Virus record (IMG/VR): IMGVR_UViG_3300045988_173816
Location: 220,027 to 284,026 of that record
Length of the DNA: 64,000 nt
DNA from: a virus
Direction: 5' to 3' (one strand)
This document shows, one piece after another, positions 1 through 60,366 of the stretch. The notes beneath the pieces were generated by a model that did no database searches, had not been told where the DNA came from, and saw only the letters and a list, made by a program, of their open reading frames with translations. Position numbers and translations under genes: made by a program. Within the stretch, counting starts at the first letter, position 1; the number at the start of each line of letters is the position of its first letter.

Positions 1-1311
1 GTTTTCCACCAATTTAAACGTGACGTTACAGATGCTGAGATTGTAATTGTAATTGGTATGTCTGGGTCTGGTAAGTCGTTTGAAATGAAGATGTTAGCTA
101 CACAGTTTGCAGCTAATGATAATATGATTATGACTATCAATGACTATGAAGGTGGAGAATACAAAGGTCTAGGTCAATTGCTTGCTGAAGATTTCCAAGT
201 TGTTTCGTTGGATTTGGGAATGGGTTCAGGTCGTTACCTCGACCCAGTTCCGATTGTTCCAACTGGTGATGAAGAAATGGACAATACCTTGTTTACTCGT
301 TCTCGTAAGAATATTATTGACTTGTTCAGAGCAGTAGCTGGTTTGGAAACCTTGAAGAAGTACGCTTGGATTCCTTTAATTATTGAGCGTGGGGTTGACT
401 TGTTTTATAGTAACTATGGGGTATCGATTGACCCTCAAACGTGGCACGCGCTAGAGGGTTGCTCTATTTATACAGTATATGAGTATTTGAAAAAATATCG
501 TCCGAATTTAGATGATGTTTTAAACTCTATTACTGAGGAAGATAAAAATATTTTAAGTGAAGAAGATATTAAAGAGTTGTACAAAGACGCTTTAAAAGAC
601 TTTCAAAAAGACTATCTTTATTTCTTGGAAACCTTTGGTTCTTATTTTGAAAAAAGTAAGAAGTTGAACAACTACTTTAAATATCCGATTTACTTAAAGG
701 ATATTATTGATGCAAAATTAGTTATTTGTGACTATAACATGCGTGGGGTTCCAGAAAGTCAGTTGTCTGAATTGGATGCTATTCTTATTCCTATGAATGC
801 AGCAACTGTAGCTTATTACCGTACTGTGTATCCTTTCTCACGTGGTCTTTACAATGTGAAGATTTGGGAGGAGTTGCAACGTTTCAGCTCTCTTCCAAAT
901 GCAGTAGAGATTTTGAAAACTCCAATCACAGGGGGTCGTAAAGCAGGTGATATTAACATTGTTGCTTCCAATGATCCAGTTAAATTGGTTGAAAAAGATG
1001 AGTTCTCCTTGTTTGCTAACTACACATTAGCAATGGTTGGTAAGATTAAGTCCCCAGTTTATCAAGAGATTGTATGCAAGGCTCTCGGTATCACTGATTT
1101 AGCTGATGAATTAGCCGAGATTGGTTCTGTTATCGAAGAGGATGAGGGTTTGACTGCGGGTTATGATGAGGTTCATGCAGAACCTTATAAGAAAGCCTTT
1201 GTTTTGAAATTGAACTCTGGGGAATCTTCAGTTGTAAAAGCAGACTTACCTCGTGCTTTAAGTGATACTCCACTCTTCAAGACCGGTGTGATTGCGCAAG
1301 ACAAACAGTAA
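1..1311 (+). CDS. VirB4/TrsE-like (HerA-FtsK superfamily) P-loop ATPase, 5'-truncated by the window edge
   Basis: Frame 1 is open from nt 1 (VFHQFKRDVTDAEIVIVIG precedes the listed Met). Walker A GMSGSGKS, then NDYEGGEY (cf. DPxGEY of conjugative VirB4-type ATPases), a Walker-B-like VKIWEE and a GGRKAG motif. Confidence 0.55.
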   Translation, partial: VFHQFKRDVTDAEIVIVIGMSGSGKSFEMKMLATQFAANDNMIMTINDYEGGEYKGLGQLLAEDFQVVSLDLGMGSGRYLDPVPIVPTGDEEMDNTLFTRSRKNIIDLFRAVAGLETLKKYAWIPLIIERGVDLFYSNYGVSIDPQTWHALEGCSIYTVYEYLKKYRPNLDDVLNSITEEDKNILSEEDIKELYKDALKDFQKDYLYFLETFGSYFEKSKKLNNYFKYPIYLKDIIDAKLVICDYNMRGVPESQLSELDAILIPMNAATVAYYRTVYPFSRGLYNVKIWEELQRFSSLPNAVEILKTPITGGRKAGDINIVASNDPVKLVEKDEFSLFANYTLAMVGKIKSPVYQEIVCKALGITDLADELAEIGSVIEEDEGLTAGYDEVHAEPYKKAFVLKLNSGESSVVKADLPRALSDTPLFKTGVIAQDKQ

Positions 1312-1332
1312 GATAGTTTAGGTGATTTGAAC

Positions 1333-1506
1333 ATGATATTATTAAGTTTAGTGCTTTTTCTAGGAGGTATCCTTTGGGGAGTTTCAAACTCTATAACCTC
1401 TGAGAAGTTAAAAGAAGAGGTTAAGAAGAGTCGTTTCCTCGTAATTGGGGTAGGTGTGGTCTATGTTTTAGTAGTCCTTGCAACAACGTTAGAAGGGAAA
1501 CACTAA
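1333..1506 (+). CDS. small membrane protein (57 aa, two hydrophobic segments)
   Basis: Hand-translated ATG 1333 to TAA 1504-1506: MILLSLVLFLGGILWGVSNSITSEKLKEEVKKSRFLVIGVGVVYVLVVLATTLEGKH. The stop overlaps the ATG of the next gene (TAATG). Below the ORF-track size cutoff. Confidence 0.5.
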   Translation: MILLSLVLFLGGILWGVSNSITSEKLKEEVKKSRFLVIGVGVVYVLVVLATTLEGKH

Positions 1507-3995
1507 TGGATTGGCGAAATTCAAATGATGATTTAACGAGACAATCAGATGCTCGAAGGGAGCGAGAAAATCAACCTTTTGAAAATGGGATTAGAGATAG
1601 AGACTCAGGGGGTTTCGGCGGTATGCGCCAAGGTCCAGGTGGCGACCCTTTAGCTCGTATGAGAGGTGCGCAACCTGACCCTTTTGCAAATCGAGTAGGT
1701 GGAGGTTTACCTCCTAGACAACCGTTTGGACAACCTCAAGGGTATCCACAACAAAACCAACCCCCTCAACATTTGAGTCAACATGAAGATTGGATGGATA
1801 AAACTTTTAAAGTAGTTACAGGTTTGTGGAAACATTTAACTTCTTATGTGTGGCCTGTCTTGTCTGAGTCTGATGATATGTTCAGAAGTGACTACAAACT
1901 AAGAAAAGGGTTAACTGCTGCTCTCTTCTATTATGGTGCAGTAGGTGGGTTCTCTTTCTTGTTTGGTTTGTTTACGAAGTTTGCAACTGCACCAGTTATT
2001 TTCGTATCTCTTGTAGGCGGTGGAGCGAGTGGTGGTATTTTCTTGTATAAGAACTCTCAGAATAAGGAGTGGGGGTTGATTGATGACTCTCCAAAGGAAG
2101 AGACTTACCCTCAAGCACCTCAACCGTCAGAGTTTGGCGCTCCAAGGGGTTTTATGGATGATGGTTTTGGTTCTCCAAATTCTAATCCTATGGGTGATTT
2201 TGGACAACCTCCAAGAAGAGAAATTCCAAATGAATTTAGAAACTTTGGTTCAAGTGGTGGTTGGGATGATGAAGAGGAAGAACCTCCATTTCCCAAAAGA
2301 CAAGGTTTTGAACCTATGATGAAACCAAATCCTACTCCATTTGATGATTTGGAAGAAGATGATTTAGAAACTCCTTCCAAGGGTATCCCCTTAAAAGGCG
2401 CAAGCGCTAAGGATATTTGGGGGAGCATAGACGATTCTGAAGATGATTTAGAAGATGAAACAGAAGAGACAGAGGGTAATTCAAATAGTTCCAGAGAAGA
2501 ATTAGAGAATCCTAAAGTTGAAGAAGTTTCCGAAAGTGCATTTAGTGCAGATTTAGCAGGTGGTATCGTTGAACCAGAGTTAGTTTCCCGTAGACTTCTT
2601 GTAGATAAGTATTTATCTCTTTTAGACGGTTCTAGCTTAAAACCTGATTGGTCTCGTGAGGTTCCAGAAGATAGTGTAGAGTTTAAACAATTAGAAACAT
2701 TCCTTCGAGACGCCCAAACAGGTGGAGTTAAAGGTTTGTCTGAGATGGATTGGGTTAATGTGAAGTCTATTACAGAGCGAGTGTCTGTATTTGAGATTAT
2801 TACTGATCGTCCAGAGAAATTAAAAGGTAAAGAAACTCTCTTTGCAAAAGAGATTACAGAGTTGCTGAAAGACCAAATGAAGGGTTATTTTGGAGATAAT
2901 GTAACCACTACTGCAGTTGGTAAAGGTAGTCGTATTGCAATTACTATCTTTAAGCAAACAGGTACTTCCTTTATGTTGAGAGATTTGATTGAGTCGAGTA
3001 AAGATTTCTTCTTAGACACGAAAAATGAACTTCCAGTTGTATTCGGAGCTGATGAATATGGAGAACCGATTCTTCTTGATTTAGCAAAACACACAGGTAC
3101 AATTATTGCAGGGATGGCTCGAACAGGGAAGTCTGTTCTTGCTACGGGTATCGTTAATCAAATGATGGCTTTAAACTCTCCTCGTAAGGTTCAAGTCGTA
3201 GCTGGTGATATGAAAAACAAAGACTCTGACTGGTATCAGATTACCTTACCTCACTTGCGTAAGTTTGCAACAGGTACAAAAGCGATTATGGACTTGCTTG
3301 ATTGGGTTGTATCTGAGGAAGCCCCAAGAAGAAAGAGATTGATTGGTGACCAGTTGAAAATTCAAAACTACAATGCGAATTGTTCGGATGAGTCTGAGCA
3401 GTTGCCTTACTTATTTGTAGTGTTGGATGAAATTATTTCTTTTGCTGAGAAGTTAGACAAAGATGAAAAAGCAGTGTATAAAGCTTATTTGAGTGAAATT
3501 TTAACTGCTTTCCCTAATGTCGGTATCTTCTTAATTTTCGTACCTCATCAACTACACAATGATTACTTCCCTAAAACGGCTTCTCGTATGGTGGGGAATA
3601 GATTTGCAGTTAAGGCAGGTCAACCAATTCAGAAAACGATTTGGGAAGACTCTTATCGTCAAATTGACTTCCCAACCACCAACACAGGTGACTTTGCTTA
3701 CACTCTCGCTGGGTCTGATGAGCCTAAGTTCGGTCACGCTCCTTTGATTATGAGCATGAGTGGTGGTAAAGAGCGTTTAGATAAGTTGTATGAAACTCAG
3801 CGTAAAATGTGGACGAAGTTATACCCAGAAGAAGCAGCTACATCTGCTTATGTCACTCGTTTGAAAAATGAGCAGGCAAGTGCAACGTTAGGTAAGCTCG
3901 GTATTCCAGTTTCGGACACGGATTTCGCAGAAGAAGACTCTTTACGTTTTCCTAAGTCTAATACAAGTAATGTAGACTTTATTCGAGACATTTAA
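1506..3995 (+). CDS. FtsK/SpoIIIE-family DNA translocase-like ATPase with disordered P/Q/G-rich N-terminus, TM segments and acidic linker
   Basis: Walker A IIAGMARTGKSV (nt ~3111-3134), then DMKNK...LPHL, LDWVVSEE..RRK, QNYN and Walker B LPYLFVVLDEI, colinear with the FtsK motor domain. Hydrophobic stretch AALFYYGAVGGFSFLFGLF...VIFVSLVGGG. No recognisable gamma winged-helix at the C-terminus. Confidence 0.8.
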   Translation: MDWRNSNDDLTRQSDARRERENQPFENGIRDRDSGGFGGMRQGPGGDPLARMRGAQPDPFANRVGGGLPPRQPFGQPQGYPQQNQPPQHLSQHEDWMDKTFKVVTGLWKHLTSYVWPVLSESDDMFRSDYKLRKGLTAALFYYGAVGGFSFLFGLFTKFATAPVIFVSLVGGGASGGIFLYKNSQNKEWGLIDDSPKEETYPQAPQPSEFGAPRGFMDDGFGSPNSNPMGDFGQPPRREIPNEFRNFGSSGGWDDEEEEPPFPKRQGFEPMMKPNPTPFDDLEEDDLETPSKGIPLKGASAKDIWGSIDDSEDDLEDETEETEGNSNSSREELENPKVEEVSESAFSADLAGGIVEPELVSRRLLVDKYLSLLDGSSLKPDWSREVPEDSVEFKQLETFLRDAQTGGVKGLSEMDWVNVKSITERVSVFEIITDRPEKLKGKETLFAKEITELLKDQMKGYFGDNVTTTAVGKGSRIAITIFKQTGTSFMLRDLIESSKDFFLDTKNELPVVFGADEYGEPILLDLAKHTGTIIAGMARTGKSVLATGIVNQMMALNSPRKVQVVAGDMKNKDSDWYQITLPHLRKFATGTKAIMDLLDWVVSEEAPRRKRLIGDQLKIQNYNANCSDESEQLPYLFVVLDEIISFAEKLDKDEKAVYKAYLSEILTAFPNVGIFLIFVPHQLHNDYFPKTASRMVGNRFAVKAGQPIQKTIWEDSYRQIDFPTTNTGDFAYTLAGSDEPKFGHAPLIMSMSGGKERLDKLYETQRKMWTKLYPEEAATSAYVTRLKNEQASATLGKLGIPVSDTDFAEEDSLRFPKSNTSNVDFIRDI

Positions 3996-5435: not shown

Positions 5436-7163
5436 GTGGCAGTAACAGAAGTTTCTTTGTACAAAGGTGGTTTTATTGATAAGTCTGCACCAATACAACG
5501 TTATAGGTTATTGGATAGTATTATTCAGAAAGCAAATGAGGATAAAGACCAAGTTGGTTTTCCAGAGTTAGCAGATAGTTTACTAGACTTAACTCCAGAG
5601 CAAATAGACCAAGTAATTGCTACAAAAAGTTCGTTAAAAGAGGGAGTAGCAAAAGGTTCACTTCGGTGGTATCAGACTTATGGAGTTCATTTTATTTTAG
5701 CAGCTCGTTCTGCTTTAATTATGGATAGTGTGGGATTAGGAAAAACTGCTACAGTAGCTTCGGTTATTAACCATGTAGGAGCTTTAAAACAGAGAACTAA
5801 AGGTAAACCTTTGCGTTATTTGTTTTTAACTGAGGTTGGTTTGGTCGCACAAGCTCGTAGAGAGCTAATTCGTTTTACAGGAGATTATGTAGCTACAACT
5901 ACGGGGGATTCAAACCAAGTAAGTGCTTTTATCAAAGAGCAAAAAGAGTTAGGGTATCCTAGTGGTGTAGTTGCTTCGTATTCAGCAGTGTCTTCAAGTC
6001 ATGAGTTTATGTTGTGGCTTGCGCACACTGTGAAGTTGCATGGTAAATTTGATTATTTCTTTATTGATGAGGGTTCGGTGTTAGGTTCTACTAAGTCTGA
6101 TATTTATAAAGCTTGTAAAACTGTACGGACAAAGTTTGCAAACCATGTGGTTGTAATGAACGCTACTCCTTTTGAGAAGTCTATTGAGGGAATGTACAAT
6201 CAGTTGAACTTTTTATTTCCAGATGTGATGCCTTTAAAGACTAAGTTTGAAGAGTTGTTTGTGAAGAAGTCATTTCAAACTCATCAAATTTTAGGCTATA
6301 AAGACCCAGAGTTGTTTAAGGTTTGTACTCGATTTATGGCTTTTGGAACGGCTCGTCAAGAGCTAGGGGTATCCGTTAAAAACTCGACTTGTGAATTGGT
6401 CTTATACAAGCCTTCACATTACCAAAACCAACTGTTTAGTAAGACTAGATACAAGCGTTATGTTTGGGACGAACCGACTTGGTTCGATCCAGATTTGGAG
6501 GTAACTCCAGAGGTTTTACCTAAGTTACAAGTGATAGAGGACTTATTTCAGTATAGGATAGGTCAAGATAAAGCTTTGATTTACGTTCACTCGGTAGAAG
6601 CTCAGAACATTTTAGTTCGGTTCTTAGAGGGGTTGGGTATAAAAGCTCTTACTATTAACGGTGAAGATAATACCCCTAAGAAGAAGGAAGCGAAGTTAAA
6701 AGAGTTCCATGAAGGTGATTATAGAGTGATTGTAACTAACTTGAAGAAGGGTTTGAATTTAGGTTTTATCAACCATTTAGTTTTTTATTCTTTCACAGGA
6801 AACTCAGGAATTACGAATCAGATTGAAGGTCGTATTGTTCGTAGTCAAGATATTCATGATAAGCATATTTACTTAGTTTTAGCTAGAAGAGAAGAGTATA
6901 AAGTTTTAGAAGATGCTTGTGTGAGTACAAAAGATAGATTAGCTCATACAAAACATGAGGTCAGTTTGTTGAACAACTTCTTTTTAAATCCAGACTTAGT
7001 AAACATAGTGGTAGAAGTTACCAAGCAAGAGATTTCGGAAGGTGCAAATTCTTCCATTGTAGCGGTATCTTATTCGAACCAAGATATGAATGGGGTTATA
7101 TCCTACCCTAAGTGGTCGGATGATTTAGAACAAACGAAAGCAGGTTTAACTTTACATGGCTAA
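5436..7163 (+). CDS. SNF2-family helicase/translocase
   Basis: LRWYQ...DSVGLGKTAT (motif I), FFIDEGS (motif II) and a C-terminal helicase domain (LIYVHS..ALTINGED....RVIVTNLKKGLNLG). Confidence 0.8.
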   Translation: MAVTEVSLYKGGFIDKSAPIQRYRLLDSIIQKANEDKDQVGFPELADSLLDLTPEQIDQVIATKSSLKEGVAKGSLRWYQTYGVHFILAARSALIMDSVGLGKTATVASVINHVGALKQRTKGKPLRYLFLTEVGLVAQARRELIRFTGDYVATTTGDSNQVSAFIKEQKELGYPSGVVASYSAVSSSHEFMLWLAHTVKLHGKFDYFFIDEGSVLGSTKSDIYKACKTVRTKFANHVVVMNATPFEKSIEGMYNQLNFLFPDVMPLKTKFEELFVKKSFQTHQILGYKDPELFKVCTRFMAFGTARQELGVSVKNSTCELVLYKPSHYQNQLFSKTRYKRYVWDEPTWFDPDLEVTPEVLPKLQVIEDLFQYRIGQDKALIYVHSVEAQNILVRFLEGLGIKALTINGEDNTPKKKEAKLKEFHEGDYRVIVTNLKKGLNLGFINHLVFYSFTGNSGITNQIEGRIVRSQDIHDKHIYLVLARREEYKVLEDACVSTKDRLAHTKHEVSLLNNFFLNPDLVNIVVEVTKQEISEGANSSIVAVSYSNQDMNGVISYPKWSDDLEQTKAGLTLHG

Positions 7164-7169
7164 GAAGAG

Positions 7170-8830
7170 CGCGGTTAGGATTTTTAGTAGGTACTCTATT
7201 AGGCTAGTGGAGGGTGTTTTGGGTTAGATTTTAATTGGTTTGAGGTTGTTTATGTTATACTAGATTTAGAAAGAGGTGAGAGAAATAGGCAAAAATGTTA
7301 AAAAGAATTTTACTGTTGTTAAATACATTGTCAAAAATACTGATATGAATGCATATTTCATGAGGTTGGCAATTTTAAGTACTAATTTAACAAATACACT
7401 TCTTTATTATCATAGACAGTGGTATTTTTATACTCAAAATGTATATTATACAGAACATCCAAATGAAAGTTTTAGACCTTACCGGTATAATGAAGAAGTT
7501 ATTGATGAATTGAAACGTTATATGTATGAGTATAATCAGAATAAGATTTTGTATGGGAAGAGACCTACTGATTTTATCACTTTTGGGTTAGATGCTTACT
7601 TCTTACATTTTTATTTTAAGAAAATTTGTCAATCCGATTATACAAATGATGACTTACCAGCTCAAGTGGCTCAACAAGTTACTCAAAAGGTTTCACAATC
7701 CTTTAAATCTTTTAAACAAGCTCGAAAAGGCTTTTTTAAAAATCCAGATAAGTATGATACTTGTCCGCAATTACCTAGATATAATAAAGGTAGTAAAATT
7801 TCTCCTTTATATTTTACAAATCAAGCTACTAAAATTAAAAACGGTGTTTTAAAATTCCCTAAGACCAAATTGACACTTCCCTTCACATATAAACCAAAAG
7901 GTAAATATACAAGGATGGAAGTCATTCATAGCTATGGGCAATTTGAATTACGTTTGGTTTTCGAAGAGACCGAAAACCTTAAATTTAGAGAAACAGATGT
8001 AGTGGCAGCTATTGATCCGGGCATAAGTAATCTTATAGCTATTACGACTAATAAAGGTCAGTCCTTATTAGTCAAGGATAAGACTGTAAAATACATCAAT
8101 CAATATGCAAATAAAGAAATTGCTAGAATAAAGTCAGCTCAAATGACAACTGGTGGTTGTGATAAAGTTCAAATGTCGAAACAATTATCAAAAATCTATC
8201 AAAAAAGACAAAGACGAATTGAACATTTGTTTTATGTGCTTGCTAAACATGTGTTAGCCTTTTGCTTAGAAAATAATGTTTCAAAATTAGCTCTTGGTAA
8301 AAATAAAGGGTGGAAACACACTTATAACAAAGGTAAAACTAATAATCAAAACTTTATTCAAATTCCTTATACTAGTCTCTATCGAAAAATACAAGATTTG
8401 TTAACTAAGAACGGAATTGAAGTAATAGAACAAGAAGAATCGTATACATCAAAAGCTTCTGCGATAGATTTAGATGAACTTCCAGTATTTGGAGAAGGAG
8501 ACCTTAATGTTAGTTTTACAGGTATACGGTTTGGAACGCATAGTCGATTGTATAAAACCGGAAAGGGAAATACCATAAACGCTGATATGAATGGTGCTTT
8601 AAATATTTTAAGGAAAGCTTTCCCAGATGTTGAAATTGAACTAAACGATTTACAATATTTAAAGAATCCGAAAGTTTTAAGAAACATGCAAGCCTAATCA
8701 GTAATAACTGTATAGGTGATGGGCGCATTTATGGGTATGCGCGGAGCATCTTTGTAGAGGTTCCGAAAGTACATTTATATAAACTGAATGTACTAATTCA
8801 TTGGTCGAACAACTGGAGAAAGGCTCACGG
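7170..8830 (+). mobile_element. tnpB-only IS200/IS605-type element (boundaries approximate)
   Basis: Contains a single TnpB ORF with no tnpA. About 110 nt of stop-rich non-coding DNA upstream and about 130 nt of non-coding DNA downstream before native-looking coding sequence resumes (~8830-8841). No GGTATC copy inside, unlike the flanks. Confidence 0.55.
7276..8697 (+). CDS. tnpB: TnpB-like RNA-guided nuclease (RuvC-like, zinc-finger-less subtype)
   Basis: RuvC I AAIDPGISNLIAITT, RuvC II EQEESYTSKAS, RuvC III INADMNGALNILRKA. No CxxC pairs between RuvC II and III (SAIDLDELPVFGEG...). GTG start; alternative ATG at 7343. Confidence 0.8.
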   Translation: MREIGKNVKKNFTVVKYIVKNTDMNAYFMRLAILSTNLTNTLLYYHRQWYFYTQNVYYTEHPNESFRPYRYNEEVIDELKRYMYEYNQNKILYGKRPTDFITFGLDAYFLHFYFKKICQSDYTNDDLPAQVAQQVTQKVSQSFKSFKQARKGFFKNPDKYDTCPQLPRYNKGSKISPLYFTNQATKIKNGVLKFPKTKLTLPFTYKPKGKYTRMEVIHSYGQFELRLVFEETENLKFRETDVVAAIDPGISNLIAITTNKGQSLLVKDKTVKYINQYANKEIARIKSAQMTTGGCDKVQMSKQLSKIYQKRQRRIEHLFYVLAKHVLAFCLENNVSKLALGKNKGWKHTYNKGKTNNQNFIQIPYTSLYRKIQDLLTKNGIEVIEQEESYTSKASAIDLDELPVFGEGDLNVSFTGIRFGTHSRLYKTGKGNTINADMNGALNILRKAFPDVEIELNDLQYLKNPKVLRNMQA

Positions 8831-9216: not shown

Positions 9217-10035
9217 TTGAAGTCGTATTTATATCTATCTGATATTCACGCAAATTTTGAGGTATTAAAACAGTTGGAAACTTTACCAGAGTTCACAGAT
9301 GAGAATTGTGAAATTCGCTTTGGTGGTGACTATATTGACGGTTTCGAACTAAAACCAAATGCTACCTTAGATACCCTTCATTTTGTGAAGGGTTTGTGCG
9401 ATAATGGAAAAGCAAGAGCGATTGTAGGAAATCATGATATTTTCTTGTTAGATAGCGCTTTTCGTCCTTTTACGACTAATTGGTGGTGTTATAATGGTCG
9501 AGAGGAAACTCTTGCTAATTTGGGTATTCCTTTTGCTTCTGAGAGCGATTTAAGAGAGCAGTTGTTGTTTTACTTATATGATGAACTAGTTTGGTTGCGT
9601 TCCTTGCCTTATTATATAGAAGACGGTTCTAATATTCTAGTTCACGCAGGTTTTGAGTTAGATTTACCTTTGGACAAACAAGATACTGAGGGTATGGTTT
9701 GGACTCGTGAGTTTTACATTGACTCTTTAAACCATTTAACTGATGTAGATTTGCACCCAGACTTTAAAGGGAAAACAATTATTTCAGGACATACACCAAC
9801 TTGCACGATGAGTGAATACGAACACCCAGTTAATCCTTGTCAAATCTTGAAAGATAGTTTAGAATTGGATGGTAAACCTTTGATTACACGTTACTTTATT
9901 GATGGGGGTTCTAAGTCCGGTTCTGAGTTTTCTCGTATCAACTTATTAAAATTAGATGAAAATGGAAATGAAATTTGGCAAGGATATCTTAATGAGACAG
10001 GTTTTCATTTATACTCAGAGCCAACGAACGGGTAA
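9217..10035 (+). CDS. calcineurin-like metallophosphatase (PrpE/ApaH-type)
   Basis: YLSDIHAN, GGDYIDG, VGNHD, LVHAG and SGHTP motifs in canonical order. Confidence 0.75.
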   Translation: MKSYLYLSDIHANFEVLKQLETLPEFTDENCEIRFGGDYIDGFELKPNATLDTLHFVKGLCDNGKARAIVGNHDIFLLDSAFRPFTTNWWCYNGREETLANLGIPFASESDLREQLLFYLYDELVWLRSLPYYIEDGSNILVHAGFELDLPLDKQDTEGMVWTREFYIDSLNHLTDVDLHPDFKGKTIISGHTPTCTMSEYEHPVNPCQILKDSLELDGKPLITRYFIDGGSKSGSEFSRINLLKLDENGNEIWQGYLNETGFHLYSEPTNG

Positions 10036-31954: not shown

Positions 31955-31960
31955 ATACTC

Positions 31961-46694: not shown

Positions 46695-46699
46695 AGCAC

Positions 46700-47566: not shown

Positions 47567-47570
47567 TAAT

Positions 47571-48734: not shown

Positions 48735-48735
48735 A

Positions 48736-49506
48736 GTGAGACTAGAATATTATTCCGATAGAGGTGGTTATAACGGTACGTCTCGTGTGCGTGGTTACCG
48801 TGAGCACAATGAAGATACAATTGGTTGTTTTCAATTGGATTTAAAAGGTCAGTCTGCATTACCAATTTATGTTTTAGTTGTTTGTGATGGTATGGGTGGA
48901 GGAGTTCGAGGTAAATACGCTTCGTCATTGACTGTTCAAGCAATTAAGTCTGTGGTTGGTTCAATTACACCATTTGATGAAGATGATGTTGATTTACTTC
49001 GTTTAGTACAGAAAGAAGTTTCAAAGGGTATCCGTAAAGCTCACATGCGCTTGTGTGCAGAGTACGAAAACAAGTCAACGTGTGCAACCACTTGCTCGGT
49101 TGCTATTGTACAAGGCTTTGAGTATTGTACTATTCAAATTGGAGACACAAGGGTTTATGAATTAAGTAGTCAAGGGTTGACTTTGAAAACAGAGGATGAC
49201 TCTTGGGCTTTTAATAAATTGAAATCAGGTGAAATGACTGAAGCTGAAGTTCGAGTTCATAAGAATAGACACATGATTACAAAAGCAGTGGGGGTTTACC
49301 GAGGTTTTCGATTGCAAGAGTCTGATGTTTATACTTTACAAACAGGTTCGGGTATCCTAGTTACCTCAGATGGTTTCTCGGAGTTGTTAACAGAACAAAA
49401 GGCTAAGTTAATTTGGTCTAAGGAAAACCAACTAGAGTCTATGTCTAAGATGATGGTTGGCGAAGGTCAAAAAGACAATATTTCGGCAATTTTTTATATG
49501 CCTTAA
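48736..49506 (+). CDS. PP2C-family Ser/Thr phosphatase
   Basis: RGYREHNEDT, VVCDGMGGG and LVTSDGFSE...DNISAI motifs. Confidence 0.8.
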   Translation: MRLEYYSDRGGYNGTSRVRGYREHNEDTIGCFQLDLKGQSALPIYVLVVCDGMGGGVRGKYASSLTVQAIKSVVGSITPFDEDDVDLLRLVQKEVSKGIRKAHMRLCAEYENKSTCATTCSVAIVQGFEYCTIQIGDTRVYELSSQGLTLKTEDDSWAFNKLKSGEMTEAEVRVHKNRHMITKAVGVYRGFRLQESDVYTLQTGSGILVTSDGFSELLTEQKAKLIWSKENQLESMSKMMVGEGQKDNISAIFYMP

Positions 49507-49547
49507 TATCGGTTTTATTAAGTAACAGTAGAAGTAGGTAGCAGTAA

Positions 49548-50564
49548 ATGACGATTGATATTAAAACTTTAGGTAGAAAACAAGGCTCATTCCTTTTGCA
49601 AGGTATGAGTGTGGGTAAAACTCGCAACGATTCAGATATGTTGCAAGGTTCTATTATTGTACGAGGTGGAGACTTTGTTCGCTTTGTCTGTTTCGACAAT
49701 TTGATTGTGTCTCAGTTTAAAGACAATGGAGTTACCAGTATTTATGTAAGTGATGGTGATGTAACTATTCAAGAGTACAATGATAACTTGTCAGCTAAGT
49801 TAGAAGGTATTCGTAGCTTGTCTTCGGACTACAACCCTGCTGAGTTTATGGAAGTTATTGATCCAAGTAAAAATGCTCATGAAATTGGCGCTTTGGTTCG
49901 CAGATTGATGACGGAGAAAGGCGCCCAGTTGACTTTACACATGTTGAGTGATAGAGGAAAAGAATTGAGTGTTGCAATGGCAGCTCAATACGGAGGGTAT
50001 CATGATGGCAAAGTTGGTGGTTTATTAAACCATATTCGTAAGCTCTTGCGTTATGCTGAGGTTGCTATGACTGAATACGAACTCCTCCACACTATGAGTC
50101 CAGAAGAGCGAGATTTGGTAATTTTGGGCTTGGTAGTTCATGATTTTGGTAAGATTTTGGAATTGAAAAACGGTGCTTATACTGAGATTTCGATTGTACC
50201 TCATACTTATTTAGGGATTGAGATTATTTCTAAGTACAAAGACTTGATTGAGCAGACTTACAATGAAATGTTTTACCGTGAATTACAAGCAATTATTTTA
50301 GAGCACCACGGAGAGTTTGGGGAACGCCCTAAAACCGTCTACGCTTACCTAGTTCATGTTATTGATTTGCTTGATTCAAGGGTATCCGGACTTCAACGAA
50401 AAGTTGAAGGGTTGGAGTTAGGTGACTCTACCTTGGTTTCCTTTGATAATTATAAATTGCAGTTTAATCGTTATGATACAAGTAATACAGGAGCGTTCCC
50501 ACAAGCACCTAAGTCAAGTTCTGTTGCCCCTATTTCAGAAGAAAACTCTGAAACTGTTGATTAG
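49548..50564 (+). CDS. YhaM-like OB-fold + HD-domain phosphohydrolase/3'-5' exonuclease
   Basis: N-terminal OB-like GSFLLQGMSVGKTRNDSDMLQGSIIVRGGDFVRFVCFD. HD motifs LVVHDFGKI and ILEHHGEFGERP. Confidence 0.55.
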   Translation: MTIDIKTLGRKQGSFLLQGMSVGKTRNDSDMLQGSIIVRGGDFVRFVCFDNLIVSQFKDNGVTSIYVSDGDVTIQEYNDNLSAKLEGIRSLSSDYNPAEFMEVIDPSKNAHEIGALVRRLMTEKGAQLTLHMLSDRGKELSVAMAAQYGGYHDGKVGGLLNHIRKLLRYAEVAMTEYELLHTMSPEERDLVILGLVVHDFGKILELKNGAYTEISIVPHTYLGIEIISKYKDLIEQTYNEMFYRELQAIILEHHGEFGERPKTVYAYLVHVIDLLDSRVSGLQRKVEGLELGDSTLVSFDNYKLQFNRYDTSNTGAFPQAPKSSSVAPISEENSETVD

Positions 50565-50585
50565 ATTTTAAGTTTGTGGTACAAT
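50557..50585 (+). promoter_or_regulatory. SigA-type promoter-like sequence (TTGATT-17-TACAAT, TG-extended)
   Basis: -35 at 50557-50562 overlaps the stop of the upstream gene; -10 at 50580-50585, preceded by TGG. Followed within about 20 nt by a terminator hairpin. Confidence 0.4.
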
Positions 50586-50603
50586 ACCATTAAGTAGAAA
50601 AGT

Positions 50604-50627
50604 AAGAGGATTTAATATCCTCTTTTT
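50604..50627 (+). terminator. intrinsic terminator / leader hairpin
   Basis: AAGAGGAT/ATCCTCTT 8-bp stem, 5-nt loop and T-run. Confidence 0.6.
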
Positions 50628-50657
50628 CGTTGATTACAACGAGATTGTAGTAAGAAG

Positions 50658-51263
50658 GTGTTTGATATGTTTGAAAAAGAGAGGGTAATACCTAGAAAAG
50701 CATTGTATTTTTTAATAGGTTTTATGTTTCTATTTGTAATTATTTTGGTCTTACTAGCTAGTTATTTCAGTCCAGTTAAAGAGATTGCACCTAGTCAAGA
50801 TCAGGAACGCCAACAAACGATTGCGAAGGGTGTAACAGACAAGGATTTATCTTTTGACCAACTACCAAGTATCAACTCGGTATCTGAAAGTTCGCCAACT
50901 ACTGATTTTTTGTATACGAAAGAATATCAGTTAAGTCGTTTGGAGAATAAATACAAGTTATCGGAGTTAGATTCTGTTTTAACTAAGCTGGGTGAAGAAT
51001 TTACTTTAGTACAACCTGTAGGTAAAATTGAAGGTGATTCTAATTTAGTTACTTTTCGTTCTCCGAACTATGAGTTGACTTATTCTTTAACTAAAGGTTT
51101 GGTTGGGGTTGGCTATAAAGGTTCTGTAAAGTTGGATCAAGTAGTTCCAAAGTTGTTTGGAGGTAAACAAGTCCAAGAATTAGAGAGCAAAGGTTACGCT
51201 AAAGAAGAGACAACTAAGACAGGGTATCATTACTTTGCACACCCTAAGTTTCAGTTAAATTAG
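50658..51263 (+). CDS. membrane-anchored hypothetical protein
   Basis: GTG start after AAGAAGG. N-terminal TM ALYFLIGFMFLFVIILVLLASYF. Confidence 0.5.
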   Translation: MFDMFEKERVIPRKALYFLIGFMFLFVIILVLLASYFSPVKEIAPSQDQERQQTIAKGVTDKDLSFDQLPSINSVSESSPTTDFLYTKEYQLSRLENKYKLSELDSVLTKLGEEFTLVQPVGKIEGDSNLVTFRSPNYELTYSLTKGLVGVGYKGSVKLDQVVPKLFGGKQVQELESKGYAKEETTKTGYHYFAHPKFQLN

Positions 51264-51275
51264 AAAGGGGAATCT

Positions 51276-52550
51276 ATGAGAAAACAAATTGCGTTATTAA
51301 GTTTATGTAGTATTGTGTTAAGTAGTTCTCCTTTTATGTTGAACTCTACACGTGTGTTAGCAGAGGAGAATAAACCAAGTCAAACTCAAAGTGTGGTGTT
51401 AAAGACTTTGGAGAGAGAAAAAGCTGAGGTAAAAACACAAGCTGAGAGGGTTGGTTTCTTACCAAGTGTCCTTATGGCTCTTTGGGTTCGAAACACTGAT
51501 TTTGGACTAAATCCAAGTGCGTTTTCGGTATCCGATTTTGTATCGGAATTGGTAAATAGTGATTCAGAGTTAGCTCAGAGGTTATTAGAAACAGGTAGCG
51601 CTGATGAAGCAGTTGCTTTGTTGTTTAAGTATAAGTATAGCAATGAGAATGATTTTGTAGGTTCTATGAACTCTGCTCTGTCTTTATCTTATGTAAAAGG
51701 TTTAGATAAAGAACTTTATTATAACGGTGTTAAACCTTTATACGATAAAAGTGAATTAAAGACTGGGAAACAACACAGACTGTCTTGGGTATCTTTAAAT
51801 CAAGATGCAGATTTACCCAGTGAACAGTTAGAATCTAAAGCCGATAGTTCTCTGGCTTTTGAAAGGGTTGGCGAAAAGCGTTTAGCTGAGAGTGGTGAAG
51901 TACGTTTTTTACTACCAACTGAGAATAAACATTGGTGGGAGTTTTGGAAAAAGGGGTTGTCTGAGAGTAAGATAACTTTTGAAAAGGAAACGGTTAACGC
52001 CCCTCAAAATGTTCTAGCTATTGCAAGTGTGTTTGCTAAGAAGTTAGGTTGGTCTTTTGACGGTGCTGGTACAGTTAAGACTTCTAATGGTTTATATGCA
52101 GTTGGTTCAGACAGTCAAAAAGTGCTTGTGAACAAGTTGGGTAAAGTTGTAGCAGTTTGGACAAAAGAAGCAAAACCTTATGGTTTTGAAGGGGTTCAAC
52201 AGATTGTTAAAGGTGCTAATGGGTATCTCACAATCGGTTTACGTTCAAGCAGTTTGTTAGAAGATACACCAAGTGTTGAGTTTGTTTTGAATAAAGAAGG
52301 TAAAGTAGATACAAACTTGTTACAACTCAGCTCAACTGAGAAGGTTGTAGGTACATTTACCTTATATGATGTAGGAACTCGTTATGTAGTTGTTGAAGAT
52401 AGTTCAACAGATACTTATAAAGTTCTCTCAGAATTTGGCGGACAAGTCGGTTCCTCAAATAAAGACGATATTAAAGGTGGAAACTTGGAGGATTTAGCAG
52501 TTTACACTCCAATTAAAACGGAGGTAGGTGTTCTATGGCTTCAAGTTTAA
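51276..52550 (+). CDS. secreted hypothetical protein
   Basis: Signal-peptide-like MRKQIALLSLCSIVLSSSPFMLNSTRVLAEE. Confidence 0.55.
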   Translation: MRKQIALLSLCSIVLSSSPFMLNSTRVLAEENKPSQTQSVVLKTLEREKAEVKTQAERVGFLPSVLMALWVRNTDFGLNPSAFSVSDFVSELVNSDSELAQRLLETGSADEAVALLFKYKYSNENDFVGSMNSALSLSYVKGLDKELYYNGVKPLYDKSELKTGKQHRLSWVSLNQDADLPSEQLESKADSSLAFERVGEKRLAESGEVRFLLPTENKHWWEFWKKGLSESKITFEKETVNAPQNVLAIASVFAKKLGWSFDGAGTVKTSNGLYAVGSDSQKVLVNKLGKVVAVWTKEAKPYGFEGVQQIVKGANGYLTIGLRSSSLLEDTPSVEFVLNKEGKVDTNLLQLSSTEKVVGTFTLYDVGTRYVVVEDSSTDTYKVLSEFGGQVGSSNKDDIKGGNLEDLAVYTPIKTEVGVLWLQV

Positions 52551-53779
52551 AGAAGAGATTGTTGTCTGGTGCTTTACTAGGTGCTACGATACTAACATTA
52601 AGTGGTTCGGTATCCTCAGTCTTTGCAGGTTATACTAATGTTGAGGATATTTCAGAGGATGGTTGGAAAACTATTCGAGGAGCAGCAAAGAAAGCAAAAG
52701 AGTTAGGTATTTCTCCAGAAGCTTTCTCTGGGATGATGGGGAACGCCAATGAGGAGTCTTCCTTCGATGCCACTTTGGAAGAAGCAGGGAATGTAGCTAG
52801 TAGAGGTCTTGGTTTATTCCAGTGGACAGATACTAGTGGGAGTCCTCGAAGAACCCAATATGAAAATTGGGTGAAAGAGAAGGGGTATGACATTAAAGAC
52901 CCAGCTACTGCAGGTGCAGCTTCTATTGAGTACATGAATGAGGAGATGCAAGGAAATTCCGATTTTGGTGCCGGTTTTTGGTCTAGTTATATTCATGGAA
53001 TTTGGGGTAGAAGTGACTTAAATCAAACTTCTAAAAGTTATGATGAATTTAAAAAGGCAAAAGATGTAAAGGGTGCAACTTATGACTTTGTAGCTGCTTT
53101 TGAGAGACCCGCAGCCGATACTTTAGATAAACGAGCTAAAATGGCAGAAGCTATTTATGAGAAAATCAAAGATGAATATGGTACTTCAAACGGAGACGAC
53201 AGTTCAAGCTCTAAGAAGAAAGAGTCGGTATCAGACAATTTGAAACGTTGGTCTGAGGAAGATATTCCGAACATGCCTAAAGACCGTGACTATGGTAAAG
53301 AGGAACGTGGTTTCAAAGATCGTATTGATAAGATTGAGAAGTTAAAAGGTGATGAAGCCACAAGTATTGCTAAGTGGAAAGAAGAACGTGATGTTTCTAT
53401 TCAACGAAGAACGATTAAAGGTACTCGTTTAGTTGTAATGGTGCTTTCTATGATTGCTTTGGTGTATCCTTCATTCTTGCTATTTGCTTATGTGTTTGAC
53501 TCATGGTTTGTTTATGTGGACAGTCCAGCTATGCGTTTAGTAACTTTTAACCGTAGAGCTATTGAGCAGAACAGAAATGGCTCTGGTGGTTTATGGTTTG
53601 CAGACAAGAAAGAAAATGCTCGTTTGAAGACAAAACGTTTAGGTTTAGGAGATACTTTGATTTGGGCTGCAATTTTCAGTATTGTAGGTGTAGCTGGTGT
53701 CTCTGGGTTAATGTATGAAACTGCGGGAAGTATTTGGCAGTTTATTGCAGATTCTTGGGGATATTTTCTCAATGGTTAG
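52535..53779 (+). CDS. secreted lysozyme-like (phage-tail-lysozyme fold) cell-wall hydrolase with C-terminal TM segments
   Basis: Signal peptide. GMMGNANEESSFDATLEE...GLGLFQWTDTSG..R resembles the Phage_lysozyme2/lytic-transglycosylase-like motif (recollection). Two C-terminal hydrophobic segments. Confidence 0.55.
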   Translation: MASSLKKRLLSGALLGATILTLSGSVSSVFAGYTNVEDISEDGWKTIRGAAKKAKELGISPEAFSGMMGNANEESSFDATLEEAGNVASRGLGLFQWTDTSGSPRRTQYENWVKEKGYDIKDPATAGAASIEYMNEEMQGNSDFGAGFWSSYIHGIWGRSDLNQTSKSYDEFKKAKDVKGATYDFVAAFERPAADTLDKRAKMAEAIYEKIKDEYGTSNGDDSSSSKKKESVSDNLKRWSEEDIPNMPKDRDYGKEERGFKDRIDKIEKLKGDEATSIAKWKEERDVSIQRRTIKGTRLVVMVLSMIALVYPSFLLFAYVFDSWFVYVDSPAMRLVTFNRRAIEQNRNGSGGLWFADKKENARLKTKRLGLGDTLIWAAIFSIVGVAGVSGLMYETAGSIWQFIADSWGYFLNG

Positions 53780-53800
53780 AAGAGTTAGGAGTAGATTAGA

Positions 53801-55477
53801 TTGGTTAGAAGTGGATCAGTTAAAACGTATTTAAAAGAGGGTGACATCATTGACAAGTCTTGGGAAGTGATTAAGAAGATTGGTCAAGGTGGGACTGCAA
53901 CTGTTTATTTGGTTCGAGATATTGAATTGAATCGGTATCTTGCATTGAAAGAGGTTCCAGTAAGAAATACTGCGAAGGGTAAGTTACAAGCTAAAGCAGT
54001 TATTGCTGAGATTAGCTTGTTAAAAACCTTGAGTCACCCTTCCATTCCTCGTATTATCAAAATGACTCATGATGCTCATTCAATTTTGATTATTATGGAC
54101 TATATTGATGGTTATTCTTTGCGAGATATTATTCGTAAGAAGAATTATATTCCAGAGTCTATGATTATTCAGTGGGGTGTAGCTTTGTGTAAAACCTTGC
54201 GTTATTTACATAATCATGAGCCTAAGATTATTTATCGAGATTTAAAACCACATAATGTCATGATTACAAATGAAAATCATTTGTACCTTATGGACTTCGG
54301 TATCGCAAAAGAGGTTACGCCTAATTTTGATTATAGTAAAGAACCAAAGTTGGGTACATTAGGTTTTGCAGCACCTGAGATGAGTGCTGATGCAGCATGG
54401 TTTGATGAGCGTTCAGATATTTTTGCTTTAGGTAGAACTTTATTTTTCTTAGCGACTAGAAATAGTCCTTCTGTTACACACATGCCAGATGGTACGCCTA
54501 TTCCGATTTTACCGATTCGACAATATGATTCATCTCGTTCAGTTGGTTTAGAAAAGATTATTCTGAAATGTACGGAGAAAAACCCGGAAGACCGGTATCA
54601 AACGATAGATGAAGTTCTTTATGATTTAGAGCATATTGATGAAATGTCTGAAGGGTTCAGAGCTAAGATTAAGCGCAGAGCGAATATGATTTATTTGTTA
54701 TTTATAACTTTAGTTTTAGGTTTTGTGTTAGTTGGGGGTGGCTTATTATACAGTCGCATTTCTGTTGCAGATACTTATAAGCAAGCTTTAGCCGCAGGGA
54801 AAACCTCTCAGTCTATTGACTCATTGTTGAAGGCTAGTAGTATTGCGCCAAGTGAGGTTGAACCTTACTTAGAGATGGTGAAGATTTATCGAGCTAGTGG
54901 TCATTTTACGAGTGAAGATGAGTTTCAATTGCTGGGTGCTTTGCAAACAAATATTCCAAGTTTGAAGGGTAAAGAAGGTGCAGGAGACTTGCTTTATCAA
55001 GTAGGTCAGTTGTATTGGTTCTATTACCCACAGAACGGTCAAACAAAGTCAGTTTCTTGGTTTGAGCAAGCTAAAGAGTTTGGGGTATCTAAAAAGAATG
55101 CACACTTACTTTCAATTTATTTGGAACTTGGTACATTCAAGAAAGGTATTTTAAGTTCGATTACAGACAACTCTGATAGTGGTATGTATAAGACTTATTG
55201 GGACGCTTTGAGCGAATTAGCAGTTGAAATGGGTGGTGACCCTCAGTTAGAGATTACTTATTTGGAGAGTGTCTTTGATGTAATTGACTCTTACTCAGGT
55301 GGTTTGAAGTCTGATGGTTTGACTTTAGAAGAGTTAACAGAAGTGTTTAATAAAGCAGTTGATTCGTTAAACTCTTATGAAGGTAAAACTGATGAGCAGA
55401 AGAAAACGAAGACTGAGTTACAATCGCGTGTAGATACAATTCGCAATAAGTTAAATACAACTTATGGTGTAAGATAG
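53801..55477 (+). CDS. Hanks-type Ser/Thr protein kinase with TM segment and non-PASTA extracellular domain
   Basis: GQGGTATVY, LALKEV, IIYRDLKPHNVMI, MDFGIAK, GTLGFAAPE. TM IYLLFITLVLGFVLVGGGLLY. No PASTA repeats seen in the C-terminal ~240 aa. Confidence 0.85.
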   Translation: MVRSGSVKTYLKEGDIIDKSWEVIKKIGQGGTATVYLVRDIELNRYLALKEVPVRNTAKGKLQAKAVIAEISLLKTLSHPSIPRIIKMTHDAHSILIIMDYIDGYSLRDIIRKKNYIPESMIIQWGVALCKTLRYLHNHEPKIIYRDLKPHNVMITNENHLYLMDFGIAKEVTPNFDYSKEPKLGTLGFAAPEMSADAAWFDERSDIFALGRTLFFLATRNSPSVTHMPDGTPIPILPIRQYDSSRSVGLEKIILKCTEKNPEDRYQTIDEVLYDLEHIDEMSEGFRAKIKRRANMIYLLFITLVLGFVLVGGGLLYSRISVADTYKQALAAGKTSQSIDSLLKASSIAPSEVEPYLEMVKIYRASGHFTSEDEFQLLGALQTNIPSLKGKEGAGDLLYQVGQLYWFYYPQNGQTKSVSWFEQAKEFGVSKKNAHLLSIYLELGTFKKGILSSITDNSDSGMYKTYWDALSELAVEMGGDPQLEITYLESVFDVIDSYSGGLKSDGLTLEELTEVFNKAVDSLNSYEGKTDEQKKTKTELQSRVDTIRNKLNTTYGVR

Positions 55478-59336: not shown

Positions 59337-59765
59337 ATGAAAGAATTATTTCAAGGTTTTATTGCAAAGCGCTTAGCTACACAGTTAAAAGATTATAGTG
59401 CAAGTGAACTTTTACGATTTTACGGTTCGATGCGAGAAAGAGTATACGCGCATTTAACTATGTTTCTGTTAGGTGCTTTCGCTTTATGTAATTATATTTA
59501 CACTTATGGTTTTGGACAGTGGGTATTATACTTACTTTTAGTTGCTATCTTACTAGGTTTATTAACTTCCGTAGTTTATCATATTGGAGTTTTCACCATG
59601 GTCAAAGGGTATCTACTTCTTCGAATGAAACCTATTTTAGATGAGTCAGAACGCCCAGAGAGCTATTTTAAGAGTAAAATTCCAACCAGTGATATTTCTA
59701 TCACCAGTTTGAAAGTAGAAAGCGTACAGGGTAATTCTGAGCCTTCTGAGGGTAGTCCTGAATAA
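59337..59765 (+). CDS. membrane protein
   Basis: ATG 59337 sits 5 nt after GAAGAGG (the ORF track starts at TTG 59316). Two to three TM segments. Confidence 0.5.
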   Translation: MKELFQGFIAKRLATQLKDYSASELLRFYGSMRERVYAHLTMFLLGAFALCNYIYTYGFGQWVLYLLLVAILLGLLTSVVYHIGVFTMVKGYLLLRMKPILDESERPESYFKSKIPTSDISITSLKVESVQGNSEPSEGSPE

Positions 59766-59787
59766 TGTAGATAGGTTTGTGGTTTAG

Positions 59788-60366
59788 ATGAAAAATGACG
59801 ATGTAGAAAAAATAAAGGAAGATTCTAAAGTTGAAGCGGGTTTCTTTCATAGTTGTTTAAATTGGATTAGTGTATTTGGTATCCTAGTAATTAGTTTACT
59901 GTTTTCTTTTAAACTTTTTTGTAATCCGATTTTAATTTTAGGGGACTCTATGAACCCTACTCTGCAGGATAATCAATTATGGTTTAGTAGAGCGAAACAG
60001 TTAGGAAAACCCAAGAAAACTGACATAGTGGTAGCTTATGAAGTTTTAACTCGAACTAAATTGGTAAAAAGGGTTGTTGCAACTGAAGGTGATGTTCTTA
60101 CTGTTTTGGATTCAGGATTGTATGTAAATCGTTCTTTAGTTGATAAATCTAAGGAGACTATGGGTCTAATTGAAGATAAATCTTCTTGGTTAGGTTCGAA
60201 TAAAGGTTTATCTGTAACTTTGCAAGAGGGGGAATATTTTTTATTAGGGGATAATCGAGAAAATTCAAATGACTCAAGAGATTTGGGTATCTTCCCGGAC
60301 TCGACTATTTCTTCAGTTTTAACTGTTGAAGCTCCAAATTTTTTACGAGATTTATTAGTTAGATAG
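59788..60366 (+). CDS. type I signal peptidase (S26 family)
   Basis: GDSMNPTL (Ser), VKRVVATEGD (Lys) and GDNRENSNDSRD boxes. N-terminal TM. Confidence 0.8.
   Translation: MKNDDVEKIKEDSKVEAGFFHSCLNWISVFGILVISLLFSFKLFCNPILILGDSMNPTLQDNQLWFSRAKQLGKPKKTDIVVAYEVLTRTKLVKRVVATEGDVLTVLDSGLYVNRSLVDKSKETMGLIEDKSSWLGSNKGLSVTLQEGEYFLLGDNRENSNDSRDLGIFPDSTISSVLTVEAPNFLRDLLVR

Follow-up and report, generated by a model that had tools for sequence, protein, structure and literature searches.

Why should one short word recur along a single strand of a very large DNA element at intervals more even than chance would give? This question is raised by GGTATC in a 64,000-nucleotide (nt) stretch of the IMG/VR virus record IMGVR_UViG_3300045988_173816 (positions 220,027 to 284,026), the whole of which is called the window below. 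An earlier note on the same DNA had described evenly spaced copies of GGTATC on its plus (+) strand and had proposed that they are initiation sites for a primase. The array proved to be real, highly significant and stronger than that note had stated. The element that carries it is, by its genes and their order, a relative, about 240-280 kb in size, of the conjugative plasmid pXO16, and the copies may be start signals for DNA synthesis on the + strand. No account of a GGTATC array or of regularly spaced polar motifs was found in the searchable literature.

GGTATC forms an array on one strand

The window holds 115 copies of GGTATC, 110 on the + strand and only 5 on the minus (−) strand, the latter at positions 9370, 36970, 43992, 62737 and 63112. 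Shuffles that preserve dinucleotide composition gave an expectation of 15 copies for both strands combined. When synonymous codons were shuffled within genes, 25.3 ± 3.6 copies were expected on the + strand and 10.2 ± 2.7 on the − strand. The + strand is thus 4.4-fold enriched over the synonymous shuffles, with a density of 1.72 copies per kb. These counts bear out the exclusive use of one strand and the enrichment claimed previously, and every site coordinate given in the earlier note was exact when recounted. Beyond the end coordinate of the note, 60291, the array passes through the tRNA cluster at 61.6-63.9 kb to a last + strand site at 63131, and in relatives it extends a further 10 kb or more upstream and some 20 kb downstream. 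The five − strand copies fall mildly below the neutral expectation, and this slight deficit is as expected if a single strand is read. The + strand is G-rich, with a guanine-cytosine (GC) skew of +0.19.

The sites occur in all three codon frames and also in tRNA and intergenic regions. The base before GGTATC is G in 59 copies, C in 32, T in 14 and A in 5, so the motif is really S-GGTATC. The base after it shows a weak preference (C in 46 copies), and beyond these two positions no conservation was found in the flanks. As a separate observation, two of the five − strand copies lie 12-13 nt upstream of a + strand copy (chance about 0.01), forming GATACC-N12/13-GGTATC inverted repeats at 62737-62760 and 63112-63136, inside the tRNA array.

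Spacing of the sites

The gaps between successive + strand copies in the window have a mean of 575 nt and a coefficient of variation (CV) of 0.645. Under uniform random placement the CV was 0.99 ± 0.09, and not one of 20,000 trials reached so low a value, which bears out the under-dispersion described in the earlier note. Five gaps are shorter than 200 nt, where 31.7 ± 4.0 were expected, and they are the five listed before (2382/2562, 3147/3232, 19231/19346, 37198/37319 and 62590/62755). Site counts in 2-kb bins have a variance-to-mean ratio of 0.36. No other frequent 5- or 6-mer of the window has a spacing CV as low as the GGTATC word family; the median of the others is 1.0.

Neither periodicity nor a strict grid nor serial correlation of successive gaps was found in the window. 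The gaps show no codon phasing, and helical phasing at about 10.5 bp, examined as a test for DNA looping, was not significant (p 0.1-0.5). They fit an exclusion zone of about 200-250 nt beyond which gap frequencies fall off exponentially; once 250 is subtracted from each gap, the CV is 1.01. In a pooled set of 433 gaps from non-redundant relatives, 32 were below 200 nt (130 expected) and 34 were above 1 kb (72 expected), and the commonest gap was 400-500 nt. The longest gaps in the window take in recently inserted DNA; a TnpB-like gene accounts for the gap 7064-8830. Internal repeats or paralogues were rejected as the source of the spacing, as the window has no such repeats and only one paralogous gene pair.

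Selection on the sites and their turnover

The first G of GGTATC falls in codon positions 1, 2 and 3 in 41, 32 and 33 cases, respectively, and four sites are non-coding. When all 5- to 7-mers were compared with synonymous shuffles, GGTATC was the single outlier (z 22), the next unrelated 6-mer reaching z 8. Site positions are uniform along genes (Kolmogorov-Smirnov p 0.997) and unrelated to starts or stops. The use of all frames, the excess over shuffles and the uniformity along genes together indicate selection on DNA or RNA, not on protein. A peptide or codon artefact was rejected, since three frames are used and synonymous shuffling yields 25 copies instead of 110. A promoter, terminator or ribosome-binding-site signal was likewise rejected, given that the sites are uniform in genes and only 4 are non-coding.

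In relatives at 84%, 75% and 73% nt identity, 73%, 44% and 36-39% of the GGTATC sites of the window, respectively, recur at the orthologous position, as against 41%, 22% and 19-23% of average 6-mers. The conservation of GGTATC is therefore about twice that of average 6-mers. At 73-75% nt identity more than half of the sites differ, yet their numbers in the aligned DNA are equal (33-36 vs 34-36). For sites found only in the window, the nearest site found only in the relative lies at a median of 332 nt, against 456 nt for random placement (p 0.02), and lost sites thus tend to be replaced nearby. Site conservation, constant count and nearby replacement together indicate that both individual sites and their density are maintained. 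The TnpB insertion at 7276-8697 contains no GGTATC and is the sole gene of at least 900 nt without a site.

The element is related to pXO16

No close relative of the window was found among GenBank phages and isolate genomes. With the family A DNA polymerase (PolA) as the marker for finding relatives, the search returned 26 IMG/VR contigs, mostly of 200-280 kb and from human-associated samples, which are circularly permuted with respect to one another. The best annotated homologues of the polymerase lie on the 350-kb Bacillus thuringiensis plasmid pBTHD789-1, which is pXO16 (PMC6199540). We read pXO16 (B. thuringiensis sv. israelensis, NC_018516.1) along the whole plasmid. All 454 annotated coding sequences (CDS) are on one strand, and 22 window proteins have homologues there at 25-36% identity, in the same order with one exception, along 155 kb. 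The shared order begins with a HerA/AAA_10-like ATPase, an FtsK-like ATPase, a SNF2 helicase, a DnaB-like helicase and a CHC2 zinc finger, and continues with a RuvC-like protein, an HNH nuclease, the polymerase, a cluster of FHA, PP2C, HD and Ser/Thr-kinase genes, and a large surface protein. The HerA-like and FtsK-like ATPases are 35% and 30% identical to the adjacent ATPase pair of pXO16 and are probably transfer ATPases. Pfam finds only the motor domain FtsK_SpoIIIE in the FtsK-like ATPase (residues 504-629 of 829), at E ≤ 1.

Across about 95 kb of the window's clade, made up of the window and flanks from relatives, no − strand gene was seen. The sign of the GC skew is constant in the clade, and the skew is positive all round the pXO16 circle. 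With all genes pointing one way and a skew that never flips, unidirectional replication co-directional with transcription is a reasonable inference. The collinear order and the single gene strand place the element among the pXO16-like giant one-strand elements. pXO16 is a conjugative plasmid that is reported to transfer single-stranded DNA; its CDS all have one orientation, which has suggested "a phage-like nature" (PMC6199540). Its relaxase and origin of transfer (oriT) have not been identified (PMC6199540, PMC9673590), and it mobilises plasmids without oriT (PMC9673590).

The window element differs from pXO16 in size (about 240-280 kb as against 350 kb) and in host genus; it carries tRNA genes and is catalogued as viral. 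Genes for a capsid, portal or terminase were not recognised among those of the window. Its HU-like gene shares 87-91% identity with HU of mitis-group streptococci, and because of this resemblance the host is probably to be sought among oral streptococci of that group. The element itself could be a phage-plasmid or else a conjugative plasmid of giant size carried by oral streptococci.

The array in relatives and outside the family

In L014 and L020, whose PolA is 75% identical to that of the window, GGTATC occurs 44-51 times on the + strand and once on the − strand per 24 kb. At 45% PolA identity, L026 has 53 + and 4 − copies, mostly as GGGTATC, and L138 has no clear array in 23 kb. L139 and L140 (PolA identity 36-38%; 47% GC, the window having 36%) have 36-37 + copies and 3 − copies, and the word is extended to GGTATCGC. 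In pXO16, at 34-36% PolA identity, the corresponding word would be GGGGTA, with 658 copies on one strand and 5 on the other. It occurs once per 531 bp, with 40-54 copies in each 25-kb bin round the circle; its spacing CV of 0.71 is lower than that of any other among 765 frequent 6-mers, and no word departs further from synonymous shuffles (658 copies vs 274, z 46). Its extended form is A-GGGGTA-G/T, and the window and pXO16 words have the core GG(G)TA in common. The two elements thus each carry a one-strand array at nearly equal density but with a different word, and the exclusion zone of pXO16 is shorter, only about 100 nt. Half of the GGGGTA copies are in frame 0, where they encode Gly-Val, and the strand asymmetry of the word is mostly compositional. 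In 97 of about 470 genes GGGGTA stands 9-13 nt upstream of the start codon, and by its position the word appears to double as a Shine-Dalgarno-like element.

No strand flip of the motif and no − strand gene was found in the 10 kb upstream and about 20 kb downstream available in relatives or in the whole of pXO16. An inverted segment was considered for clustered − copies in L007, L013 and L019 and rejected, as these copies sit in a normal + strand gene.

The word has no such distribution in the likely host. A sample of 480 kb of chromosomal DNA drawn from 24 streptococcal genomes contained GGTATC 107 times on one strand and 113 times on the other, 220 copies in all where 218 were expected (rank 1823 of 4096), and the density of the word was 0.23 per kb per strand, as against 1.72 on the + strand of the window. 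A host word of the Chi or KOPS (FtsK-orienting polar sequence) type was rejected on these counts. No comparable array was found in about 35 unrelated PolA-encoding phage contigs, in T7, or in pCW3, another Gram-positive plasmid that transfers single-stranded DNA. On these sequence comparisons the array appears to be a family trait, specific to this family of elements. As an observation on the streptococcal chromosomal DNA itself (loci L058-L094), CGCGTG/CACGCG is among its most over-represented 6-mers; the lactococcal-type Chi is GCGCGTG, and the excess is consistent with it.

A proposed grid of priming sites

What might read such an array? We tentatively favour, at somewhat less than an even chance, the reading of the GGTATC array as a grid, kept by selection, of signals at which discontinuous synthesis on the + strand begins. 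The mechanism proposed in the earlier note is the best-supported single explanation, to be held with the same reserve, and it would have to be broadened to the strand transferred in conjugation. The element would use a replisome of its own, made up of the family A polymerase, the DnaB-like helicase and a primase whose parts are separate proteins. Of these parts, the stand-alone CHC2 zinc finger would recognise the motif on single-stranded + strand DNA and would then direct a separate catalytic subunit to begin an RNA primer opposite a T of the motif. The + strand would be single-stranded as the lagging-strand template, if one-way replication is co-directional with transcription, and also as the strand entering the recipient cell in conjugation. 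With a site every 400-600 nt the whole strand could be made duplex in parallel; a site within about 200 nt of its neighbour would bring no gain, or would shorten the fragments, and would not be kept.

The array, its strand, the selection on it, its conservation in the family and the presence of a domain able to act as reader are direct observations. It is by inference that we take the zinc finger for the reader, let primers start at the motif and name the process served. The stand-alone CHC2 protein reported previously was found again by its match to Pfam Zn_ribbon_DnaG, and it also matches the zinc-binding domain of Aquifex DnaG; the DnaB-like helicase was confirmed as well (Table 1). The pXO16 orthologue of the CHC2 protein likewise stands alone, and the gene lies downstream of the DnaB-like gene in both elements. 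In pXO16 a split DnaG-type primase can be recognised, comprising a CHC2 zinc-finger protein of 190 aa (WP_000365721.1; record positions 173139-173711) and a Toprim_2 protein of 261 aa (WP_000389279.1; 44525-45310), whose genes are about 130 kb apart.

A primase's template trinucleotide is set by its zinc-binding domain, which is able to work in trans on the catalytic domain of another molecule; Firmicute DnaG starts on d(CTA) or d(TTA), copying the middle T and leaving the 3' A cryptic (PMC2978363). GGTATC permits two readings of the cryptic base, either ...AT followed by an uncopied C or GGT followed by an uncopied A as in the core GG(G)TA, and both fit these rules (PMC2978363). The primer pppAUACC with a cryptic C, which the earlier note had derived from the word, is accordingly one possible reading, but GG(G)TA fits the Firmicute d(NTA) rule better. 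A core of this form would give a primer pppACC... with a cryptic A, C-rich like the pppACCC of T7.

Two window proteins were considered as the catalytic partner and rejected. The RuvC-like candidate encoded directly after the zinc finger is not a Toprim protein, and the 470-aa protein encoded next to the helicase is predicted to be a chain of winged-helix modules instead of a primase.

Several points weigh against a priming function. The window and about 30 kb of relatives' flanks yielded neither a Toprim protein nor any other catalytic protein of a primase. The analogy with T7 on which the earlier note had drawn gives no genomic support, because the known primase sites are divided 161 to 159 between the strands of T7 with a spacing CV of 0.92. 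To our knowledge, no known primase leaves such a footprint on a genome. The motif is also longer than the known primase sites of 3-5 nt, having 6-7 fixed nt, or 8 (GGTATCGC) in the clade with 47% GC. The sites are no freer of secondary structure in single-stranded DNA than control hexamers are (0.503 vs 0.503). The array of pXO16 is less clean, its frame-0 bias, Shine-Dalgarno positions and compositional asymmetry making the equivalence of the two arrays not certain. Both the direction of replication and the strand transferred are presumed, and with all genes on the + strand a replication-coupled and a transcription-coupled signal are inseparable by sequence alone. We regard as doubtful the wider proposal that pXO16-like elements in general carry a genome-wide priming grid of several hundred oriented words that is read by the element's split primase.

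Other explanations of the array

Among the alternatives we place first, although we think it unlikely, an architectural array on double-stranded DNA. An element protein would bind oriented duplex sites and bridge or coat the 240-kb molecule for compaction, partition or transfer, neighbours excluding one another; the 470-aa winged-helix chain (16667-18079) and the ParB_N-HNH protein would be candidates. The motif is specific to the element, its 6-8 bp are a normal size for a protein-DNA site, and the gap distribution, with almost no gaps below 200 bp and a mode at 400-500 bp, is like a DNA-looping probability curve. The helicase-adjacent 470-aa protein is moreover predicted to consist of about 7-8 DNA-binding modules like those of BldC and pSK1 Par. 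Yet the gaps show no helical phasing (about 10.5 bp; p 0.1-0.5), the exclusion zone shrinks to about 100 nt in pXO16, where the 470-aa protein has no detectable homologue, and duplex binding offers no reason why all sites should be on the coding strand. That last property would follow from a signal coupled to transcription, since with all genes on the + strand the copies are on the non-template strand. In this case an elongation, anti-termination or pausing factor would read the non-template strand or GGUAUC in the RNA, as RfaH reads ops (the operon polarity suppressor element), and would be re-engaged repeatedly along a very long one-way transcription unit. The array also crosses the transcribed tRNA region, and the core GGTA appears to resemble the centre of ops, GGCGGTAGCGTG. 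The reading is nevertheless improbable, and comes second: no NusG- or RfaH-like protein (NGN/KOW domains) was found among about 55 window proteins scanned, known loading sites act once per operon, in leaders, rather than every 500 nt within genes, and the site positions ignore gene boundaries.

A polar guide, by which an FtsK/SpoIIIE-like transfer ATPase reads the oriented motif, as KOPS and SRS (SpoIIIE recognition sequences) are read, and pumps DNA into the recipient, would suit a motif that is polar and covers the whole replicon. The FtsK-like ATPase adjoins the AAA_10-like ATPase, and both are conserved with pXO16. The guide is quite improbable in our judgement, however, as it leaves the regular spacing unexplained, the density of GGTATC is about 20 times that of KOPS or SRS, the gamma domain that reads KOPS was not detected in the FtsK-like ATPase, and pCW3 has two FtsK-like transfer proteins yet no array. 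The report that pXO16 transfers single-stranded DNA (PMC6199540) also counts against it; the absence of a known relaxase or oriT from pXO16 (PMC9673590) counts for it. The same absence, together with the mobilisation of oriT-less plasmids (PMC9673590), could be accommodated if the sites were nicks or distributed transfer origins, cut on the + strand by a nuclease such as the ParB_N-HNH protein in the manner of phage T5. Many small transfer origins might explain the promiscuous mobilisation by pXO16, the fusion of an HNH nuclease to ParB_N is kept in both elements, and the motif is on one strand only. Nothing indicates nicking, though, and neither regular spacing nor an exclusion zone would be expected of it. 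The nicks of T5 are few and irregular. Nick sites are given still less weight than a guide, and are very unlikely. Hardly any weight falls to a host-directed signal or a by-product, such as a Chi-like site for AddAB or RexAB, avoidance of Type III restriction, or a codon or peptide bias. Each can yield strand-skewed words, and the + strand is G-rich, but streptococcal chromosomes show no enrichment or skew of GGTATC. Restriction avoidance leaves a 4.4-fold enrichment unexplained, the − strand being mildly depleted (5 vs 10.2 ± 2.7). A codon or peptide bias does not agree with the use of three frames or with the loss of the signal on synonymous shuffling. The window also lacks internal repeats from which the signal could have arisen. 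These last explanations are largely refuted.

Comparison with known systems

Under the priming reading, the nearest parallels are the template words of zinc-finger primases. The T7 gp4 primase uses 5'-GGGTC, TGGTC and GTGTC. For AtTwinkle the site is 5'-(G/C)GGA (PMC5737085). GGTATC resembles such sites in being a short word on one strand with a T at which a primer could start beside uncopied 3' bases, and a CHC2 zinc-binding domain is encoded in the window; as in T7, the G-rich 5' part of the motif would give a C-rich primer. It differs from them in its 6-8 fixed nt, its 4.4-fold enrichment, its near restriction to one strand and its regularity. The candidate reader differs from known zinc-finger primases in being a separate small protein with no catalytic partner located in the clade.

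The single-strand origins (sso) of rolling-circle plasmids and of integrative and conjugative elements, of which sso1 of ICEBs1 is an example (PMC4595007), provide orientation-specific priming of the second strand on single-stranded DNA, after conjugative entry and in rolling-circle replication, in Gram-positive hosts. The window array is strand-specific in the same sense (110 + vs 5 − copies). However, a replicon has one or a few sso, which are long, structured and served by host enzymes, whereas the elements of this family have hundreds of words of 6-7 nt, probably read by a factor that the element encodes. No conserved structured element of about 100-200 nt is present at the sites, which have neither conserved flanks nor a structural signal.

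Chi, KOPS (read by FtsK) and SRS (read by SpoIIIE) are, like GGTATC, over-represented, strand-skewed short words spread over a whole replicon. They are host-wide and occur about once per 5-15 kb. They flip strand at the origin and terminus and are irregularly spaced, whereas GGTATC is about 10-20 times denser, never flips, keeps an exclusion zone and gives no signal in the likely host. The stoperators of cluster A mycobacteriophages and the EcoP15I sites of T7 are also asymmetric words with many copies in a single orientation to transcription. Stoperators are 13 bp long, number about 30 per genome and are mostly intergenic, and the orientation of the EcoP15I sites is explained by avoidance and not by enrichment; neither set is regularly spaced. 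GGTATC differs from both in being intragenic, used in all frames and positively selected.

Implications for giant mobile elements

It was through polar words such as Chi and KOPS that the reading of chromosomes by directional DNA machines came to be understood. The GGTATC array exceeds them in density and is regular in its spacing; it is confined to one family of giant mobile elements, and the selection on it can be measured. If it were a priming grid, it would be the first case of primase specificity shaping a whole replicon, and it would offer a handle on the conversion of very large plasmids from single strand to duplex after conjugation. It could then explain how a molecule of 240-350 kb becomes established only minutes after its transfer as a single strand, and would shed light on why the genes of pXO16 strictly face one way. 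As pXO16 is cultured and genetically manipulable and carries the same phenomenon, the question is testable now. The comparison also shows that pXO16 has its relatives in the 'viral' 240-280 kb contigs of human samples, which probably live in oral streptococci.

Other features of the window

The coordinates of the array and of the annotated genes are collected in Table 1. The 470-aa protein has a predicted fold of about 7-8 tandem MerR/BldC-like winged-helix modules (predicted local distance difference test score, pLDDT, 80), an unusual architecture, and no homologue of it was detectable in pXO16; on this model it could act as an initiator, as a loader of the helicase or as an architectural protein that binds DNA. 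A search of the window for a methyltransferase, a NusG-like factor or a relaxase found none.

Table 1 Positions of the GGTATC array and of annotated features in the 64,000-nt window
Feature	Position	Strand	Remarks
GGTATC array, 110 copies, extended form S-GGTATC-Y	420-63136	+	mean spacing 575 nt; exclusion about 200-250 nt
HerA/AAA_10-like ATPase	58-1311	+	cut by window start
FtsK/SpoIIIE-like ATPase	1506-3995	+	no gamma domain detected
TnpB-like transposase gene	7276-8697	+	insertion absent from L027 and L193
NinI-like phosphatase	9217-10035		
DnaB-like replicative helicase	15082-16674	+	
Family-specific 470-aa protein	16667-18079	+	translationally coupled to helicase gene
Stand-alone CHC2 (DnaG-type) zinc-finger protein	18979-19629	+	216 aa; Pfam Zn_ribbon_DnaG 9.8e-8
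RuvC-like resolvase candidate	19629-20561	+	directly after zinc-finger gene; not Toprim
ParB_N and HNH nuclease-domain protein	23060-24700	+	orthologue in pXO16
HipA-like kinase	30409-31215		
IS607-like insertion	31904-33986	+	absent from L019; carries three + strand sites
MerR and resolvase (serine-recombinase) TnpA of the insertion	31961-32584		
TnpB of the insertion	32538-33719		
RAGATH-18 RNA of the insertion	33755-33834		probably TnpB guide RNA
Family A DNA polymerase with 3'-5' exonuclease domain	41589-45512	+	1307 aa; element's replicase
Signalling cluster: FHA, PP2C, HD, cell-wall hydrolase (Phage_lysozyme2), Ser/Thr kinase	46658-55477		syntenic with pXO16
HU-like gene	60481-60836		near-consensus promoter: TTGACA, 17 nt, TATAAT, extended -10 TG
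Eight tRNA genes (Leu, Arg, Lys, Phe, Val, Asn, Pro, Met)	61596-63937	+	

A TnpA and TnpB pair similar to that of the IS607-like insertion is inserted elsewhere in L044, where it also has three GGTATC sites. GGTACC (the KpnI site) is missing from both strands of the window and GGGATC occurs only once, which may reflect restriction-site avoidance. The stretch 60292-61187 around the HU-like gene contains no GGTATC, which suggests a recent acquisition of this gene from the host. Several related contigs end near the tRNA array.

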